Assembly: GCA_963675595.2 (NCBI GenBank)
Contig: CAXXLZ010000002.1
Location: 2,944,001-3,008,000, forward strand
DNA: 64,000 bases
Origin: Thermodesulfobacteriota bacterium
Lineage (GTDB): Bacteria > Desulfobacterota > Desulfarculia > JACQYL01
Direction: 5' to 3'
Below are positions 30,491 to 38,952 of this stretch, one piece after another. The notes under the pieces were generated by a model. That model saw nothing but the letters and a program-made list of their open reading frames with translations, made no database searches and had not been told where the DNA came from. How positions within the stretch are numbered: the first letter of the stretch is position 1; each line of letters starts with the position of its first letter. Both the position numbers and the translations under genes were made by a program.

Positions 30491-33400
30491 ATGTCAAAGG
30501 TTATGTTTGGGTCCTCGAACCGTAACGACTACGATCATTCACGGAGCCGGCTGATGACTGACATTTTGGTGAAAAAGGACAAGATAGTCTCCGGGTTTAG
30601 CTTGGTTATGGTTTTTGTCTGTTTGGTTATCGTGTTTTCCATGCCCAACATCATTTATGCTTCAGCGTGTTGCATAGATGACGAGGTTCACGGCGAATGC
30701 GCTTTTCGGGATGCTGCTCCCGACCATCGGCCGGAATCGGCATCCTATAGGACTTTTCAAGAGGGTGATTTTATAGGGGTTGCGCCAAGTACTGATACAA
30801 GAGATCCTGAAATTGAAACGAGCCGTTCACTGACTATGATTTCAGGCCGGAACCATCCCAGCCATTCAGCTTCGGGAACCGAAAGCATTTTTCAAGCAGG
30901 AAGATCGGGCACTGCGAACCCGGGTGTCTTAGACGTCACTTCCATCGGTAAAACCGCGAACACCCGCAACATGACCATCAACAGCGCCCCTAAAGTCCTT
31001 CTTGTTTCATCAAGGCTCGATGACGCGCATGATCTCGTGAATGCCGCAAACTCCAACGTGCTGGTGATTCAATATAACCCTGAAACCACGGTTCTGAATG
31101 AACTGAACGCGATGGTGACTGACGCGCTCAAGGGCGGGAAGGCTTCATCCATTGCGTTTGCCGCACATAATTGTGGAAGAAACAAATTTCATATCGCCGA
31201 CTCTGAAGTGATCAGTCTCCGTTCAACGGTTTCCAACAGCAAACAGGGGGAGTTCTGGCGCAAACTTGCCTCCAATCTTGAAAAAGGCGGCAGAATCGAT
31301 CTATTGGCCTGCGACCTTGCTGAAGGAGACGAAGGAGGGTTGCTGATAGGCGCGCTGGAACATGTCACGGGAGTCGACTTCGCGGCTTCGACGGATGCAA
31401 CGGGTAATGCCGAGCATGGAGGAAACTGGATACTTGAAACGGATCGCATCAACGCTGAGGAATATTTCAACGCCCCTGAAATCAAAAACTATACGGAATT
31501 AATGGCTGCAAACTGGGAACAGACCCAAAAACTTACCGTATCACCATTCAGCAGCGAATTCGGATTCAGCGTAGCCGTTTCCGGAGATGGGAATACCGCG
31601 CTTATCGGGGGTCCCACCGCTGGTTCGGAAGAAGACGGTGAAGTTTTTGTATTCAGATATTCAGAAGGTTCCTGGGTATATGACGAAACCATAGAAGCTC
31701 CCGAAGGCGGTGGTTTTGGAGTTGCCGTCGCACTTTCCCATGATGGAAATACGGCATTGATCGGTGCCGATCGCGGGGAGAAGGCGTATATTTACTCGTA
31801 TGACGAGTCCTGGTCTTTGGAGACTACATTTGACCCTTCAGGGTCAAATGAAAGCTTTGGATCCAGTGTATGTCTTTCAGCGGACGGATCAACGGCTGTT
31901 GTTGGTGCACCTCTTTTTGATGATCCGTCACAAAATGCAGGAGTCGTCTATGTATATACGGGAAGCGGTTGGTCGGATGAGACCAAGCTGAGTCCTACGC
32001 TTTACGGCTCCTCTATTGGCGACTCTCAATTTGGTTATAGTGTATCTATTTCATCGGATGGGACAACTCTTCTTGTAGGAGCTCCCTATTTTGGTCTCTC
32101 GCCTCATGGTGTCGTTCTTGTCTTTACGGGCTCAGGCACCTCGTGGACTCAACGGACAGACTTCGAGGGGGATGGTTCAACTGAGTATTTCGGCTCCGGC
32201 GTCTCTCTCGCATCAGATGGGACCACGGCTGTTATCGGAGCGCCGCGTAATAATTCAAGTACCGGAGCGGCCTATATATATACGGGCTCAGGCAGTTCCT
32301 GGACCCAACAGGCAAAGCTTTCAGCAACCGGCGGAGCAACCGGTGACGATTTTGGTACTCGCGTATCTATTTCACCGGATGCCACAACCGTCTTAATCGG
32401 AGCGCCCGGAGATAACTCTGATCTTGGGGCGGCATATATTTTTACCGGTTCCGGCAGCTCCTGGGAACAGCAAGCCAAACTGATCGGCGATAATTCCGTT
32501 GATGAAGACTTTGCGCAATGGAGTATGGCGATCTCCCCGGATGGAAAAACGGCTTTTATTGGAGCGAGATCGTATAACGGCTGGCAAGGAACCACTTATG
32601 TTTTCGAGGCGGCAGGCGGCCCCACTTGGGACGGAAGCGAAAGTTCCGACTGGACGGATGGAGACAACTGGAGCACCGGAACCCAGCCGGGCGCCGATGA
32701 TGATGTCGTAATCCCCGATGCCTCCACAACCGATCATGATCCAAACGTTGCCGGCGGGTATACGGTGAATTCCTTCACCGTGGAGAACGGCGGTGTGGTG
32801 AACTTCACGAGCGCTGCCGCCAAGATCACCGCCGACGAAGGCGTCATCAGTATCACCGGCACCGGTGAAGGAGGGAACGGCGCTCTCAAGGCCGGCAGTT
32901 CGTCCACCCAAATTCAATTGGAGGCCCAGACCGGTAATCTAACCCTTGCGGGCGCCAAGATCGTCTCCAACGGCGGTCTCATCGATATCAAGAGCACCGC
33001 CGGCGCCGTCGTGATCACCGGGGACACGACCCTTTCCGTCGACAATTCAAACGTGAACCTGACTTCAAGCGGAGGGGATATCGCCGGCGGCGGTTCCCTG
33101 ACCATCACGGTGAACGGGGTGGCGGGCGAAAGCGTTACCATCGCCGACGACATCAACGGCCTTGCGGCCCTTACTATATCCAACGCTCCGCAAGTCGATC
33201 TTCAAAACGTCTCGGTCACTACCGGAAACATCGCCGTCACCGGCTCGAACATCGACCTCAACGGCGCCACCTACACCAGTGCCGGCGGTTCCGTCACCTT
33301 CACCGGGGCGGTGGATCTCGATTCCCCCGGCGGGGCGGCCGTTTCGTCCGGGGGCGAGGCCGGCGACGACATCTCCTTTACCGGCACCATCGACGGAAAG

Positions 33401-36220
33401 GACGACGACACCCAGAGTCTCACCCTTGACGCCGGCTCAGCGGGAACCGTTTCGGTTTCCGGCGCCATAGGCGGGACGGCCTCAAAACAAATTAAGACAC
33501 TGACGATCACCAACAGCAACGGCGCCACGTTTTCAGGTGCGGTTACAGCCGACACCGGCGTGGTTCTCACGGACTCCGAGGACGGTTCCGACATCGTCTT
33601 CGACGGCGCCCTCGTGACGCCGACCCTGACGACCGCCGATCAGGGCTATAATGTGCAGCTGAACGGCGACGGAACCACCATTGCCGATCTTGTGGAATTC
33701 CTGAACACGGGTACGGTTTCGCTCGGCGATGCCGCCGGAGATACGCTCACCTTCAACGGCGGGATTGAAACAACCGGCAACGGCAGTAATCCATCTTCCG
33801 TCAGCCTCAACGGCGCCCTGGTGACCTCGAACGACGTGGTTACCCTGGGTGCAACCACCATCAGCGGTACCGCGGCGATCAATTCCGGAGGCGGCGCCAT
33901 CGCCTTTTCAGGAACAACAGGGGGCGGCGGCACACTCACGGCCTCCGGCGGGACGGTAACCTATGGCCTGGCCGGTGCTCAGAGCATTTATACAGGTACC
34001 TACGCGGGGGTTTCCTTTGCAGGAAGCGGCACCAAGACCCTCGCCGGGGCCATCGACGTGAACGGCAACCTTTCCATCGCTCCGGGCGTTACCCTCGATG
34101 TCGCAAACGGCGGTGACTTCGGCATCAACGTAGCCGGAAACTGGAGCAACAACGGGGTATTCGACGGCCGGTCCGGCACCGTGACCTTTGACGGATCCCT
34201 AGCCCAGGGCATTTCCGACAACTCCACCTTCCACAATCTGACCATCAACGCTTCGGCACTGGTGACGCTTGCCGGAGACGTCACTGTCGACGGCACCCTG
34301 ATCCTCACCGACGGCGGCGGATTGATCGACACCGACGGGCATACACTGACTGCCAACGGCACGATTCTGGATGATTCAGCCGGTACTGATTTTGACGGCG
34401 ACCATATGATTATTTCGAATGGTACGGGAAGCCTCCGGCGAACGGCTCCCAATGCCGGGACCTACCTGTTTCCCGTGGGGACCCTGAATGGAACCGCCTA
34501 CTATTCACCGGCGACCCTCATTTTTACCGACGGGTCTTATGACGGCGGCGCCTATGCGGAGATTTCCGTCAATAACAGCAAACAGCCGAACAACACCAGC
34601 ACCACCAATTATCTGAACCGGTACTGGACCGTGGCCCAGAGCGGCATATCGGGTTTTTCCTGTAATGCCTCTTTCAATTACCAGCCGGATGACGTTGCGG
34701 GCACGGAAGCCGATATTTCCGGCGCCGCCTACAGCGGCGGGGCCTGGACGGCACTTAGCCCTGTGGATACGGTCAACCACAAGTTTTCCGGCACGGTTGC
34801 GAGTTTTTCCGATTTTACGGGTGTCGGGTCCTACGGGGTGACCTACAACGCCAACAGCGCCACATCCGGCACGGCGCCCGCCGCTCAAGCCAAGATTAAA
34901 GGCCTGGACCTGACGCTTCAGACGAACTCGGGCAGCCTGGCCAGAACCGGATATACCTTCTCCGGATGGAACACGTCCGCCACCGGACTAGGTACTCACT
35001 ACGACGCCGGAGGCACCTACTCCGCCAATGCAGCCGTGACCCTCTATGCCGAATGGACGGCCGATACCTACACGGTGACCCTTGACGATCAGGGGGGCGC
35101 CGGCGGAAGCGGCAGTGTGACCGCGACCTACGACTCGGCCATGCCTTCGGCCACGGCGCCGACGCGTGACGGGTTCACTTTCGTCGGCTACTACACGGAA
35201 ACCGGAGGTTCCGGAACTCAGTACTATACGGCGGCCATGGCGAGTGCGCGCAACTGGGACCGGACTTCGGACACCACCCTGTACGCGCATTGGACCACCA
35301 TAGTCGCTCCCACGGCTACCGACGCGACGAACGTTTCGGGAACCGGGTTTACGGCCAACTGGCTCAGTGTCGCCGGTGCGACCGGCTACCGGCTGGATGT
35401 GTCGGAACAAGACGATTTCAGCACCTTCGTCACCGGGTACCAGGACAAGGACGTGGGAAATGTCACCTCTTCAGCGATAACCGACCTCAACGAGGTAACG
35501 GAATATTATTACCGTTTGCGGGCCGAGAAAGACGGATCGACAAGCGACCATTCCAATACCATCAGCGTGACCACTTCCGACGGCACCGGGGTTTCGGCGG
35601 GTGTTCAGGATGCCGTCCCCAACGGCGGCGACGGAAACGGCGACGGCATTCAGGACAGCCTGCAGACCAGTGGGGCGTCCCTTCCTTCAGCCTCATCCGA
35701 CCAGAGCTATCTCACCCTGGAAGTCCGGGACGGTTGCGATCGGCTGCACAATGTGGCCACCGGCACCTATGCTTCCGTGGGGACTCCTGATCCGGGCTAC
35801 GAGCATCCCTTTGAGCTGATGTCTTTTAACCTTCCTTGTGCGACGGCCACGGTTCGCGTCTACTATCACGGCGCCGATTCTCTGGCGCATTTTGTCTACC
35901 GGAAATTCGGCCCGACGCCCGACGACTGGAACTCTTCGGTGTGGTACAGCATGCCTGATGTGACTTTCGGAACGGAAGAGATCGATGGAAAGACCGTTCA
36001 CTATGTCGAATTTGTGCTGGAAGAGTCCAAACTGGGCGACGATACCAAAGGTTTCCTATGTGGCCTCAAGTCAAGCCGGAATTGGATAACCGTTTCCTAT
36101 TCGCGCCCGAAGCGCCAAGTACACATGCGATGTAGAAGCGAAGATGCCGCCATTTCCCCAGCGCTACCGATGCAGCCAAACTTTATCGCGGCCGTCTCCG
36201 CTGTTGTCTCCCCGGCTTGA
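30491..36220 (+). CDS. Giant surface/adhesin protein (DUF4347, FG-GAP repeats, beta-helix, InlB-B/Flg_new repeats, FN3, choice-of-anchor U-like); native C-terminus cut off by IS110
   Basis: IDLLACDLA...AASTDATG...GGNWILE; repeated FGxSVxxSxDGxTxxxGAP; GYTFSGWNT...LYAEW; FN3 YYYRLRA; residues after 36056 are IS-derived; start uncertain. Confidence 0.85.
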   Translation: MSKVMFGSSNRNDYDHSRSRLMTDILVKKDKIVSGFSLVMVFVCLVIVFSMPNIIYASACCIDDEVHGECAFRDAAPDHRPESASYRTFQEGDFIGVAPSTDTRDPEIETSRSLTMISGRNHPSHSASGTESIFQAGRSGTANPGVLDVTSIGKTANTRNMTINSAPKVLLVSSRLDDAHDLVNAANSNVLVIQYNPETTVLNELNAMVTDALKGGKASSIAFAAHNCGRNKFHIADSEVISLRSTVSNSKQGEFWRKLASNLEKGGRIDLLACDLAEGDEGGLLIGALEHVTGVDFAASTDATGNAEHGGNWILETDRINAEEYFNAPEIKNYTELMAANWEQTQKLTVSPFSSEFGFSVAVSGDGNTALIGGPTAGSEEDGEVFVFRYSEGSWVYDETIEAPEGGGFGVAVALSHDGNTALIGADRGEKAYIYSYDESWSLETTFDPSGSNESFGSSVCLSADGSTAVVGAPLFDDPSQNAGVVYVYTGSGWSDETKLSPTLYGSSIGDSQFGYSVSISSDGTTLLVGAPYFGLSPHGVVLVFTGSGTSWTQRTDFEGDGSTEYFGSGVSLASDGTTAVIGAPRNNSSTGAAYIYTGSGSSWTQQAKLSATGGATGDDFGTRVSISPDATTVLIGAPGDNSDLGAAYIFTGSGSSWEQQAKLIGDNSVDEDFAQWSMAISPDGKTAFIGARSYNGWQGTTYVFEAAGGPTWDGSESSDWTDGDNWSTGTQPGADDDVVIPDASTTDHDPNVAGGYTVNSFTVENGGVVNFTSAAAKITADEGVISITGTGEGGNGALKAGSSSTQIQLEAQTGNLTLAGAKIVSNGGLIDIKSTAGAVVITGDTTLSVDNSNVNLTSSGGDIAGGGSLTITVNGVAGESVTIADDINGLAALTISNAPQVDLQNVSVTTGNIAVTGSNIDLNGATYTSAGGSVTFTGAVDLDSPGGAAVSSGGEAGDDISFTGTIDGKDDDTQSLTLDAGSAGTVSVSGAIGGTASKQIKTLTITNSNGATFSGAVTADTGVVLTDSEDGSDIVFDGALVTPTLTTADQGYNVQLNGDGTTIADLVEFLNTGTVSLGDAAGDTLTFNGGIETTGNGSNPSSVSLNGALVTSNDVVTLGATTISGTAAINSGGGAIAFSGTTGGGGTLTASGGTVTYGLAGAQSIYTGTYAGVSFAGSGTKTLAGAIDVNGNLSIAPGVTLDVANGGDFGINVAGNWSNNGVFDGRSGTVTFDGSLAQGISDNSTFHNLTINASALVTLAGDVTVDGTLILTDGGGLIDTDGHTLTANGTILDDSAGTDFDGDHMIISNGTGSLRRTAPNAGTYLFPVGTLNGTAYYSPATLIFTDGSYDGGAYAEISVNNSKQPNNTSTTNYLNRYWTVAQSGISGFSCNASFNYQPDDVAGTEADISGAAYSGGAWTALSPVDTVNHKFSGTVASFSDFTGVGSYGVTYNANSATSGTAPAAQAKIKGLDLTLQTNSGSLARTGYTFSGWNTSATGLGTHYDAGGTYSANAAVTLYAEWTADTYTVTLDDQGGAGGSGSVTATYDSAMPSATAPTRDGFTFVGYYTETGGSGTQYYTAAMASARNWDRTSDTTLYAHWTTIVAPTATDATNVSGTGFTANWLSVAGATGYRLDVSEQDDFSTFVTGYQDKDVGNVTSSAITDLNEVTEYYYRLRAEKDGSTSDHSNTISVTTSDGTGVSAGVQDAVPNGGDGNGDGIQDSLQTSGASLPSASSDQSYLTLEVRDGCDRLHNVATGTYASVGTPDPGYEHPFELMSFNLPCATATVRVYYHGADSLAHFVYRKFGPTPDDWNSSVWYSMPDVTFGTEEIDGKTVHYVEFVLEESKLGDDTKGFLCGLKSSRNWITVSYSRPKRQVHMRCRSEDAAISPALPMQPNFIAAVSAVVSPA

Positions 36221-36287
36221 GGCTCGGGACCCACCTCAAGTATGGGTCCCGAGCCGGTTGGGTTCTCCTAAACAAGTCCTAACCGGC
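36060..36287 (-). ncRNA. Candidate bridge/seek RNA of the IS1111 element
   Basis: Hairpin-rich region with 8-nt matches to the empty target (tttcccca, 36153-36160) and circle junction (tttcctat, 36093-36100). Confidence 0.75.
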
Positions 36288-37376
36288 TCATGCTTGGTCC
36301 GCTTGGAGACGAAATTCATAGGTCCGTTTTTCCATGGTCAATCGCCATAGAACAACGGCCAGTTTCCGTGCCAACGCACAAATGGCCTTTTGTGGAAGGC
36401 CCGTTCGCGACAGGAGTTTTCGATAATGCGAATCAATGGCCGGATCCCTGGACTTCCACGTCCAGGCCGCCTCCACCAACAGACTCCGCAGTCGCGTCTG
36501 ACCCACGGGAGGAAGCGCCACTCGAGATTTCCTCTCTCCGCTCTGTCGCACCAGGGGGGCGAGTCCCAGATAGCTGGTCACTTCCTCCACTCGATGGAAC
36601 CGACTCGGGCGAAACAATTCCAGGAGGAAGGTAGCCGCTGTGATGGGACCCACCCCGGGGACGCTTCGAAGGCATCGCATTTCCTCAAAGTGTTCAGGTT
36701 TCTCGCACACACTGGAAGTCCTTTCCTCCATGAAGGCTTTTTCCTTTGTGAGGAAATTCAACTCACGGAGCAAGCTGAGCAGCGTCGCTTTGGCCTCCTT
36801 CGGCAGACGAAGCTTTCGAAGTTGCGCCACAGCGCTTCGGCCCCAATGATTGAGCCCGGGAGGCGCCTCCACACCGTGAAACAGCAGAAGGGATTGAATT
36901 CTCTGCTTAACGCGTCGAGTGCCGTCGGCCAGATCGTGCCGACGGCGAATTACGCTGCGTTCGGCCTCCTCTTCCTCCGTGGGAACGGCGATGGACTTCA
37001 ATATCCCTCGGGCGGCATGGTCCGCCAACCGCATGCAATCCAGGCGGTCGGTCTTGGCCCCCGCAGTCACCGGCCTAGGGACCCGACTCGGCGCCACCAC
37101 GATCACGCTGAACCCGGCTTTGGCCAAAGTGCGCGCAAGGCCGAAGCCGGTGGGCCCCGCTTCGTAGGCTACGGCTCGGATGCGCCTCAAGTGGGGGAGC
37201 AACATGGCCACGATGGCCTCCGGAGAGGCCGAGGACACAAAAGTCTTCACCTCGCCGTCGCTGCGAAGCACGGCCACGTGGTAGCTCTTTTTGTGTACGT
37301 CGATCCCGACGTGGAAATCACGGTCGATATCCAGCTCCAAAAACTTGGCCAATTCTGTTACTTTCGTTGCTACCAT
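36288..37376 (-). CDS. IS110 DEDD recombinase/transposase
   Basis: GIDVHKKS, AYEAG, KTDRLD (DEDD); SVPGVG, SYLGLAP..RQSG (catalytic Ser). Confidence 0.95.
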   Translation of the reverse strand: MVATKVTELAKFLELDIDRDFHVGIDVHKKSYHVAVLRSDGEVKTFVSSASPEAIVAMLLPHLRRIRAVAYEAGPTGFGLARTLAKAGFSVIVVAPSRVPRPVTAGAKTDRLDCMRLADHAARGILKSIAVPTEEEEAERSVIRRRHDLADGTRRVKQRIQSLLLFHGVEAPPGLNHWGRSAVAQLRKLRLPKEAKATLLSLLRELNFLTKEKAFMEERTSSVCEKPEHFEEMRCLRSVPGVGPITAATFLLELFRPSRFHRVEEVTSYLGLAPLVRQSGERKSRVALPPVGQTRLRSLLVEAAWTWKSRDPAIDSHYRKLLSRTGLPQKAICALARKLAVVLWRLTMEKRTYEFRLQADQA

Positions 37377-37447
37377 GTTGGTCTCCTTTCTGTTTGGGTG
37401 ATGCTCCATCATAACGATCGAGCACCTGAGGCCAACATGGTATTTCC

Positions 37448-37602
37448 CCATCATAGATCAAGGCGGCGTCGCTCGAGCGGACGACGCCACCGGTCGAACA
37501 AGCACCGCCGTTCCTACACTCAAAGAGTGTGGACTGATCATTCTGGCGCTTCTATTGGGCTGCGGGGCCCTATGGAGCATCAGACGACGGGAGGAATGCT
37601 GA
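37448..37602 (+). other. Stranded native C-terminus of the surface protein with IPTL-CTERM-like anchor
   Basis: IIDQGG...AVPTLKECGLIILALLLGCGALWSIRRREEC*; in frame with 30491 ORF once the IS is removed. Confidence 0.85.
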
Positions 37603-37690
37603 CCATTCAAGGGAGGACTCTTGAAGAAAGTCCCTTCCGAGCCCTCAAGACCTCACAAACAGGCCTTACCGCCTTCGGCGGAGAGCCTGA
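37603..37690. repeat. REP/MITE-like element (inverted copy of 29985-30085)
   Basis: caggccttaccgccttcggcggagag vs reverse complement caggcctcaccgcctccggcggagag. Confidence 0.6.
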
Positions 37691-37791
37691 GGGGGAATAC
37701 GGTTGCTCGTTAACTTCCAGGGCTCCTTTTTTGAAGCGGGCTTTGAGGTCGTCGCCGCTTACAAGAATCTAAAACATCCCGCCGGCAATGG

Positions 37792-38952
37792 TCACGTCAT
37801 CTCCACCGGCCGCTTCGCCTTAGGCGTGTTTCGGCTGGGATGGACCACGATGCGTCCGTCCACCAACACGAGGGAGACCGCCGGTACGTCTCCTTGCTCC
37901 AACGCCTGCAGGGCATCCTCCCCTACGCCTCCCGCCGGAGCGTCCAGAATGACCAGGTCCGCCGGCCTACCTTCCTTGATCAATCCGGAGCGGAGACCAT
38001 AAACCCCGGCCGTATTTCCCGTGGCCATGCACAAGGCCTGTTCAGGCTCCACCTCGGCCAGGGAAGCGGCCATGCCCACCACCCGTAGTACGCCGAGAGG
38101 CGTCACGCCGCTGCCCGACGGAGAATCGCTGCCCACGATGATTCGGTCCAGAGCGTTGACCTTTTTCGCATACTGGAGGAGAGTCACCAACGCCTTGGGG
38201 TTGCCGCAGTAGACCAACTCAAGGGCGCAGGAGCTCTCCAGCAAAATTCTCTGCATGTCTCCCCTGCTTATTGCGGTGGGTCCCCCGTTGATATGAGAGG
38301 CCACCCGAGGTCGGACTTTGAGAACATGTTGCGCCGTCACGGCTTCGGTTTGGTGCGAAGAGGGTCCGCCCACGTGCATGGTTACGATCATCCCCGACGC
38401 TTGTGCCCACTCGGCCATGACCGCGGCATCGTCGGGCATCGAAACGGAGCCCAGACCGATCTCCCCCACAAGGCGAACACCGTGCGCCGCCATCTCCCTG
38501 AAGTCGTCACGGGTCAGGCCTTCTTCCAGGATCACCGCACCTCCCAGGACCTTTATGCCCCCGGGACGATAATCACGATAGATTTTCGCGGCGAGGATCG
38601 CGAGGGCCTTCGCACCCGCGGGATCTGTCGGACGACCGGGAATATGGACCTCACCCGCGGAGATCAGGGTCGTTACGCCTCCATGGAGAGCGTTTTCCAT
38701 GAACCCGATCTGTTGCTGCCTGGGAGTGTAGTCCGTGAGCCCCACGTGGCAGTGGGAGTCAAGAAGCCCGGGCGCCGCCACGGCACCCTTTGCGTCGATG
38801 ACGGTATCTACTTTCATGGTGGAAGCTTCTTCACTCGATCCGATCCACTTGAAGACTCCGTCTCTGATGAGAAGAGCGTCTCCGGTGATGAAGGGAGAAT
38901 GAATGTTGCCTGAAATGAGCTTTCCGATGTTTCGGATTAGAATAGAGGACAT
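37792..38952 (-). CDS. Amidohydrolase, enamidase-like
   Basis: PGLLDSHCH, SAGEVH.PGRP, MHVGG, SHINGG, GSDSPSGSG. Confidence 0.8.
   Translation of the reverse strand: MSSILIRNIGKLISGNIHSPFITGDALLIRDGVFKWIGSSEEASTMKVDTVIDAKGAVAAPGLLDSHCHVGLTDYTPRQQQIGFMENALHGGVTTLISAGEVHIPGRPTDPAGAKALAILAAKIYRDYRPGGIKVLGGAVILEEGLTRDDFREMAAHGVRLVGEIGLGSVSMPDDAAVMAEWAQASGMIVTMHVGGPSSHQTEAVTAQHVLKVRPRVASHINGGPTAISRGDMQRILLESSCALELVYCGNPKALVTLLQYAKKVNALDRIIVGSDSPSGSGVTPLGVLRVVGMAASLAEVEPEQALCMATGNTAGVYGLRSGLIKEGRPADLVILDAPAGGVGEDALQALEQGDVPAVSLVLVDGRIVVHPSRNTPKAKRPVEMT

Follow-up and report, generated by a model that had tools for sequence, protein, structure and literature searches.

The gene for a large surface protein of 1906 codons is interrupted by a 1391-bp element of the IS110 family (IS1111 type) at 36057-37447, where all coordinates are positions within the window, the 64,000-nt stretch of DNA that was analyzed. 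The reading that best accounts for the data, with a probability of roughly 0.8, is an ordinary and fairly recent strain-specific truncation, reversible only in principle, caused by insertion of a multi-copy IS1111-type element at a near-cognate site. An active element of this kind would have entered the gene by its normal RNA-guided, site-specific route, and the insertion site, AAAGGTTTCC^CC, would represent a fortuitous near-cognate target 51 codons before the gene end. The coding capacity now consists of 1855 genuine and 54 junk residues, and the C-terminal sorting signal is lost; if still made and exported, the truncated protein would be neither processed nor anchored through that signal. 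Exact excision is chemically possible for the IS110 family and would restore the gene; a useful rate of excision is not indicated here.

The 5′ part of the gene (30491-36056, plus strand) comprises codons 1-1855 and the first base of codon 1856. As a preliminary description of this DNA had noted, the open reading frame now present (30491-36220, plus strand, 1909 codons) runs through codon 1855, ending ...GDDTKGF, and then into a junk tail of 54 element-derived codons and a stop (36057-36220, plus strand), which forms the present end of the truncated protein. The orphaned last 51 codons and stop are found on the far side of the element (37447-37602, plus strand) in a frame that translates as PIIDQGG...VPTLKECGLIILALLLGCGALWSIRRREEC*. 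In silico removal of 36057-37447, or equally of 36052-37442, yields one uninterrupted frame of 1906 codons with its end at 37602, and neither gene half carries any further lesion, in agreement with the same description. A terminator scan of 35900-38000 returned no terminator. The 5′ part encodes a hydrophobic N-terminal segment, visible in the translation, followed by DUF4347, FG-GAP, Listeria-Bacteroides repeat, and fn3 domains, and by a C-terminal domain common to other IPTL-CTERM proteins. The protein had been described as an adhesin of ~1900 residues, a function that these domains suggest.

The orphaned frame scores as an IPTL-CTERM domain with both PF18203 (33.6 bits versus a cutoff of 20.8) and TIGR04174 (28.4 versus 20.5). 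The domain occupies residues 20-47 of the piece (about 37504-37587) and ends 3-4 residues before the stop, with an IPTL-type motif, a transmembrane helix, and a basic tail at the extreme C terminus. Eight TIGR04174 matches above cutoff are found genome-wide, from which it is concluded that an IPTL-CTERM sorting system is in use in this genome. Seven of the eight close open frames of 265-1363 aa, and the match of the split gene is the only one that sits in a 66-aa frame. Both gene halves abut when aligned to the G003 homologue and to two in-genome paralogues, all of which read without a break across the corresponding region as ...GD.D....I.DPGG...(I/V)P(T/S)L, a transmembrane segment, and a basic tail. 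The G003 match is a 687-aa protein that has only the C-terminal domain in common with the split gene product. The orthologue search matched three of 41 genomes, G000 included, and neither of the two same-family genomes. In a larger protein search with residues 1450-1855 as the query, the best 120 of 2089 matches were examined and are mostly fn3 and Listeria-Bacteroides repeat proteins; among these 120, the only one with full coverage is the 1888-aa call of the window itself, and none is an intact, near-identical allele.

The limits of the element were fixed by comparison with seven further full copies elsewhere in the genome. The element body (36057-37442, minus strand, 1386 bp) lies between a left (36052-36056) and a right (37443-37447) junction copy of TTTCC, within which the crossover point cannot be placed; because the same five bases stand at both junctions, one element unit, counted with only one of these two 5-bp copies, measures 1391 bp. 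The transposase (37376-36288, minus strand, 362 aa) has a DEDD/RuvC-like N-terminal domain (PF01548, 57.9 bits) and a PF02371 C-terminal domain (78.8 bits) and scores 228.5 bits with NF033542 against a cutoff of 140. With this score and those of PF18203 and TIGR04174 all above their cutoffs, the earlier claim that an IS110 element has detached an IPTL-CTERM anchor is upheld. The non-coding region downstream of the transposase gene is 231 nt long versus 66 nt upstream, and the transposase sequence GLAPLVRQSG fits the GL-P----S(t)G motif; a longer downstream non-coding region and this motif are both given as criteria of the IS1111 group in the available text of PMC11187229. By these features, the element classifies as a member of the IS110 family and, more exactly, as IS1111 type. 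Subterminal inverted repeats of 11 nt (91% identity) are located at 36061-36071 (right-end arm) and 37424-37434 (left-end arm), beginning 4-5 and 8-9 nt, respectively, inside the element ends. The transposases of the nearest relatives found are 55% and 50% identical to that of the element. Similar to the IS1111-type seekRNA elements ISEc11, ISPa11, and ISKpn4, as far as the available text of Siddiquee et al. 2024 (PMC11187229) describes them, the element combines a DEDD transposase with PF02371 and GL-P----SG, a long non-coding region downstream of the transposase gene, and subterminal inverted repeats. Its differences from that family as presented there are a longer transposase (330-350 aa in the family), another target, and an RNA that is here predicted from sequence.

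The 3′ non-coding region (36057-36287, minus strand, 231 nt) is presumed to be the seekRNA or bridge-RNA gene and has a predicted folding energy of -100.4 kcal/mol (z = -3.7). Two segments of a predicted internal loop match the target site. The 5′ side, AAAGUUU (36178-36184, minus strand), is complementary to the target top strand over the core and right flank in the orientation of the element; the 3′ side, GGGGAAA (36153-36159, minus strand), is identical to the top strand over the left flank and core and is therefore complementary to the bottom strand. These target-strand matches follow the IS1111 order. In the consensus fold, the two guide segments oppose each other in the internal loop, and 8 of 24 base pairs show compensatory changes. 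Across three related elements, guide segments and target flanks covary: in an element of a Desulfovibrionaceae MAG, the loop segments AAAGUUUUU and UCCAAAA occur together with the flanks T(T/C)CAAAA and AAAACTTT; in L016, GGACUUUU and UCGUAAA occur together with CTTGTAAA and AAAAAGTCC; and in L009, CUAAAGUUU occurs together with the flank AAACTTTAG. An Rfam search in E-value mode over 35900-37700 returned no matching family. The target matches and the covariation suggest that the element is RNA-guided, the label that it had been given in the preliminary description.

The genome holds eight full copies of the element, the one in the split gene included. Five of the eight lie in a REP-like palindrome, GGGG(G)AAACTTTC..GAAAGTTTCCCC, where both guide segments are matched in full (7/7 and 7/7). 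The match is 7/7 and 6/7 at the gene site, 6/7 and 6/7 at L002, and 7/7 and 4/7 at L004. The sequences AAAGTTTCCCC and AAAGGTTTCCCC occur 19 and 25 times versus 2.6 and 0.7 expected. The element does not serve this gene in particular: its usual target is the palindrome, and the gene site is a chance near-match to it. The left-side flank reads ...TTTCC in all eight copies, and the other junction reads TTTCC in seven and TTTTC in one, a pattern of IS1111-type, sequence-specific targeting without ordinary duplication. In site-specific REP insertion, in the presence of several near-identical copies per genome, and probably in its RNA-guided recombinase, the element resembles IS621 and ISPpu9 of the IS110 family, as far as available accounts describe these. 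In IS621, the bridge RNA lies upstream of the recombinase and the core is 2 nt long, whereas here the RNA region lies downstream of the transposase and the junctions have 5 bp in common.

The restored junctions of three other copies are crossed by stop-free frames: L002 (273+29 codons), L003 (253+76), and L008 (127+26). At L002, a 278-aa frame is without any Pfam family; at L003, a 481-aa ORF stops about 21 nt before the element; and the flank of L008 contains a complete class-V aminotransferase whose start lies beside the element. Among the seven other copies, no recognizable gene is demonstrably broken. These seven copies are mutually identical except for a single base in L002, within its copy of the shared core, and the split-gene copy differs from them at 11 positions. 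With these 11 differences, the gene copy falls outside the latest burst and may predate the seven others. At the same 11 positions, L009, an 81% fragment, carries the majority variant at four and the variant of the gene copy at five, a split that rules it out as a simple conversion donor.

The 11 private differences also bear on whether a repeat copy was misplaced inside an intact gene during assembly, an explanation that is hardly credible. An eight-copy repeat is the type of sequence that assemblers misplace, but the private differences set the gene copy apart from a collapsed consensus. Moreover, at each end of the element, contigs of run X1 from an independent assembler (records 5 and 8, depths of about 15 and 14) pass out of unique gene sequence and enter the element with no mismatch.

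Runs X1 (2023) and X7 (2024) represent two samples of one study. Contigs of both enter the occupied junction with no mismatch in the first 20 letters and extend 20-26 letters into the element, where the threshold for bridging is 31. The sole empty site is seen in run X3 from another study, in which position 36051 is followed directly by 37443 on a single contig of 4221 nt, an omission of 1391 bp; five junction letters fit either side, and the shorter side measures 255 letters. This contig differs from the window at 111 letters in 2665 and at 30 in 1158, and it derives from a diverged relative that is ~96% identical (about 4% of bases differ). The relative lacks exactly 1391 bp with no extra letters, so that the scarless empty site that had been postulated exists as a natural allele and is ancestral. 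Because neither gene half has another lesion and the relative has an empty site, the insertion is probably lineage-specific and young. Truncation may also have been favored, for example if a costly giant surface protein was shed or inactivated in an enrichment or reactor, and may now be fixed. Such selected loss would be a special case of the truncation described above. It is unlikely: the occupied contigs of 2023 and 2024 and the intact remainder of the gene agree with it, but drift gives the same pattern, there is no phenotype, and X1 and X7 do not provide independent support, because two samples may be one lineage.

The preliminary description had also raised the possibility of an anchored/released switch. 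In its general form, the element would leave and re-enter the site often, and the population would contain both anchored and released protein, as with IS492 at eps of Pseudoalteromonas atlantica; this is improbable. A toggle confined to the sorting signal, in which cell-bound and shed protein alternate under RNA guidance and the seven other copies supply recombinase and guide RNA in trans, is very improbable. The resemblance to IS492 is that of an IS110-family element in a surface-related gene whose frame is restored by precise excision. At eps, high-frequency excision and phenotypic switching have reportedly been demonstrated and are said to depend on chromosomal context. No excision is seen here, and the transposase lies antisense to the split gene, so that transcription of that gene cannot drive it. 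Switching would be helped by the exact in silico restoration of the frame, by guides that still match the gene site, and by seven further copies as potential sources of transposase and RNA, but the element normally targets the REP-like palindrome, to which this site is a near-match by chance. X1 and X7 contain no empty-site contig, and the only empty site belongs to the diverged relative; rare variants are lost from contigs, so excision confined to a minority of cells would escape notice.

A -35-like hexamer, TTGACT, is present at the right end of the element (36069-36074, minus strand). After circularization, 17 nt (12 nt from the right end and the 5-bp core) would separate it from a downstream TACCAT, the initial six nucleotides of the left end (37442-37437), and the two might together form a junction promoter. 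A junction promoter of the circularized element corresponds to the Pjunc concept. At the left end, a predicted hairpin (37371-37442, minus strand; -33 kcal/mol, z = -5.1) pairs the terminal 15 nt with the segment containing the start codon of the transposase and would block translation of the transposase from read-through transcripts entering from that side. Reading of the sequence upstream of the left end reveals no evident hybrid promoter, and a promoter scan gave only an internal site. With an antisense transposase, no evident hybrid promoter, and a start-masking hairpin, the chromosomal context at the gene site does not appear to drive the transposase. According to the available text of PMC13626964, precise excision does occur in the IS110 family, post-excision junctions and circles having been detected for genomic IS621 copies, but excision of IS621 required transcription through the element and was about 2000-fold below insertion efficiency in vitro. 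The switch has no support in any of the data: the site is a near-match, the transposase is antisense, contigs of two samples enter the occupied junction, and the one empty site seen is that of a relative. The other option in the preliminary description, simply a recent knockout, fits better.

As matters stand, the finding is a case of ordinary gene disruption by an insertion sequence and is useful mainly for annotation: a single IPTL-CTERM gene of 1906 codons underlies both the protein call of 1888 or 1909 aa and the orphan frame of 51 codons. If mixed populations of occupied and empty sites were real, they would represent a rare case of phase variation that affects a sorting signal instead of expression. 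For the element family, the eight copies, five at perfectly matched and three at mismatched sites, indicate which mismatches to the guides are tolerated in vivo and provide a clean natural example for work on bridge and seek RNAs, to which the relatives, with guides that covary with their targets, add.

The plus-strand open frame at 30491..36220 of the window (1909 codons) translates as ...VEFVLEESKLGDDTKGF, followed by 54 residues without relation to the protein and a stop, such that the gene, as claimed in the preliminary description, reads into IS-derived sequence after ...GDDTKGF, at residue 1855. The publicly listed protein is 1888 aa long, a length that takes in the 54 element-derived residues and would place the start at methionine number two, codon 22 (start region 30491-30553). 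Beyond the element, the frame 37447..37602 reads PIIDQGG...VPTLKECGLIILALLLGCGALWSIRRREEC and a stop, and profile searches place its product above the cut-offs for the IPTL-CTERM sorting domain (PF18203, 33.6 bits, cut-off 20.8; TIGR04174, 28.4, cut-off 20.5), in agreement with a detached anchor. In silico deletion of the 1391-bp unit by coordinates yields a single 1906-codon frame ending at 37602, and the rejoined gene is in frame. The 1855-residue part contains DUF4347, FG-GAP repeats, Listeria-Bacteroides repeats, and one fn3 domain, a content that makes "surface protein" a reasonable label; of the earlier "~1900-aa adhesin", the size stands, and "adhesin" is better taken as a putative function.

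The last ~150 residues of the 1855-residue part form a domain that also occurs in a 687-aa protein from another genome of the order (43% identity) and in two same-genome paralogues. In all three homologues, the chain runs unbroken from a ...GD.D...I.DPGG... motif to an (I/V)P(T/S)L motif, after which come a hydrophobic helix and a tail of basic residues, and in alignment A1 with them the two gene pieces abut exactly at the break (LGDDTKGF/PIIDQGG). Seven of the eight TIGR04174 matches over the cut-off in the genome lie at the ends of open frames of 265-1363 aa, and the orphan piece is the only one located in a 66-aa frame. Judged by these frames, the IPTL-CTERM sorting system is in use in this genome.

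Between the gene halves, the minus strand encodes a 362-aa IS110-family transposase (PF01548; PF02371; NF033542, 228.5 bits, cut-off 140), and the IS110 insertion described earlier is more exactly IS1111-type by sequence features. As given by Siddiquee et al. 2024 (PMC11187229), these features are a longer non-coding region 3' of the transposase gene, tnp, subterminal inverted repeats, and a C-terminal motif. The element has every one: 231 nt downstream of tnp versus 66 nt upstream, repeats at 36061-36071 and 37424-37434, and the motif GLAPLVRQSG in the transposase. The genome (6.79 Mb, 3 contigs) holds eight full copies at 99-100% identity and two fragments, and lining up the flanks of the copies sets the element body at 36057-37442. 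TTTCC is present at both junctions of the gene copy, and therefore one unit is 1391 bp. The right end contains TTGACT, which the circle form would put 17 nt ahead of the first bases of the left end, TACCAT; on the circle, the two would make a junction promoter of a kind named in the literature. In folding calculations, the outermost 15 nt of the left end base-pair with a region that includes the start codon of tnp (-33 kcal/mol, z = -5.1), a hairpin that would silence translation of transcripts entering from outside.

In the predicted 3' non-coding RNA, read in element orientation, AAAGUUU is followed 18 nt further on by GGGGAAA. A consensus fold computed from four related sequences, in which 8 of the 24 pairs carry compensatory changes, places the two segments opposite each other in an internal loop that a small hairpin closes. 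GGGGAAA has the same letters as the target left flank and core, and AAAGUUU is complementary to the target core and right flank. Read 5' to 3', the match to the top strand comes first and that to the bottom strand second, as has been reported for seekRNAs of the IS1111 type (PMC11187229). The guide segments covary with the target flanks in three related elements. The nearest transposases found belong to two of these: L016 (55% identity), with loop segments GGACUUUU and UCGUAAA and flanks CTTGTAAA and AAAAAGTCC, and a Desulfovibrionaceae-MAG element (50% identity, 7 copies), with AAAGUUUUU and UCCAAAA and flanks T(T/C)CAAAA and AAAACTTT. The third, L009, has loop segment CUAAAGUUU and flank AAACTTTAG, and its bottom-strand guide differs (CUGCAAA). 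These matches and their covariation support the proposed RNA guidance of the element. L009 (G000:C1:339451-340000, G000 being the window's own genome) is a right-end fragment of a related element, 81% identical in DNA and 3 kb from a full copy on C1; an isolated 73-bp left-end fragment lies at G000:C2:3813470-3813542.

Five of the eight copies occupy the palindrome GGGG(G)AAACTTTC..GAAAGTTTCCCC, where the GGGGAAA segment (left flank and core) and the AAAGUUU segment (core and right flank) each match at 7/7 positions. The corresponding matches are 7/7 and 6/7 for the gene copy, in coding sequence, 6/7 and 6/7 for copy L002, in a variant palindrome, and 7/7 and 4/7 for L004, at another site. The target palindromes belong to a family of repeats scattered over the genome, AAAGTTTCCCC occurring 19 times in the genome versus 2.6 expected and AAAGGTTTCCCC 25 times versus 0.7 expected, with ~20 of the 25 being both arms of a second palindrome subfamily. 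The gene was struck because the target is spelled, by chance, in its K-G-F-P codons. As judged from frames across restored junctions, flanking genes, and Pfam, none of the other seven copies demonstrably disrupts a recognisable gene; a possible exception is L002, where a 273-codon frame without a Pfam family runs into the element.

Copy L002 (G000:C2:3243951-3245340) is bordered by TTTCC on one side and TTTTC on the other; the target there and the element core probably differed by one base, in which case the two junctions would record the strand of origin of each, which bears on where strand exchange occurs. L005 and L007 (G000:C2:3698761 and 1357379) have the same left flank over 40 nt or more and right flanks that are almost the same, and so may share a larger duplicated segment rather than being independent insertions. 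Outside the window, G000:C2:4378562-4381555 holds three target-motif matches with a common continuation, GTTTCCCCCGCACACGCGGGGATAGG, and differing upstream sequence; the locus has the appearance of a CRISPR array, with a repeat that begins with the right half of the target. Directly 3' of the gene's stop is a dispersed composite repeat (37603-37700); its 42-nt core (37656-37697) has 11 genome copies at ≤5 mismatches and, in sequencing run X1, a word depth of ~150-160 versus ~14 on unique flanks. Just before this core, at about 37612-37650, a degenerate version of the usual palindrome can be read by eye, which suggests a decayed natural target ~170 bp away from the actual insertion point.

The other seven copies are mutually identical except for one base in the L002 shared core copy. 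The gene copy differs from them by eight substitutions within 59 bp of tnp (36533-36591), all synonymous and over the GLAPLVRQSG region, and by three more changes in the 3' non-coding region (36203-36213), just upstream of the guide loop; L009 does not explain this patch as its source. Among the sequencing runs, element contigs from X3 and X9 are similar to the gene copy, and those from X1 and X7 to the seven-copy variant.

Public contigs were compared with 33000-38600 of the window. In X3, another study's run (organism B), one 4221-nt contig spans 33387-36051 and resumes at 37443-38600; it lacks exactly 1391 bases, has nothing inserted in their place, and leaves five letters that could be assigned to either side. 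With 111/2665 and 30/1158 positions different from the window, the contig must come from a relative of about 96-97% identity and not from the same strain. This exact empty site bears out the scarless restored sequence claimed earlier. X3 also carries the element elsewhere, at ~3x the depth of the empty-site contig. X1 (possibly the source sample) and X7 are runs from two samples of one study. X1 contigs enter the element from unique gene sequence on both sides (34271-36076 and 37422-38600), as does one X7 contig on the left (35846-36076), all without mismatch; they reach only 20-26 letters into the element, short of the bridging threshold of 31. Neither X1 nor X7 yielded an empty-site contig; rare variants are lost from contigs. 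Together, the X3 empty site and the X1 and X7 occupied junctions indicate that the rejoined sequence is ancestral and the insertion lineage-specific.

The preliminary description had offered either a switch between anchored and released protein or a recent knockout. A dedicated switch would have a counterpart in IS492, the classic reversible case, which reportedly plays a role in phase variation. Precise excision is also known for the family, circles and post-excision junctions having been detected for genomic IS621 copies (PMC13626964); for IS621, excision required transcription through the element and had an in vitro efficiency ~2000-fold below that of insertion. At the gene site, tnp runs antisense to its host gene, and in transcripts from the convergent amidohydrolase gene (37792-38952) the left-end hairpin is predicted to mask the transposase start codon. 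Moreover, the site is a chance near-match to the guides, the occupied junction is entered by contigs from both X1 and X7, and the empty site is seen only in the diverged relative. For these reasons, a switch is very unlikely, and we favour a lineage-specific truncation, with a probability of roughly 0.8.

The element is a new IS1111-type element that behaves as known for its family, inside a gene of known architecture. For annotation, the value lies in the two fragments being one gene; for the family, the element is a natural record of the guide mismatches that it tolerates.
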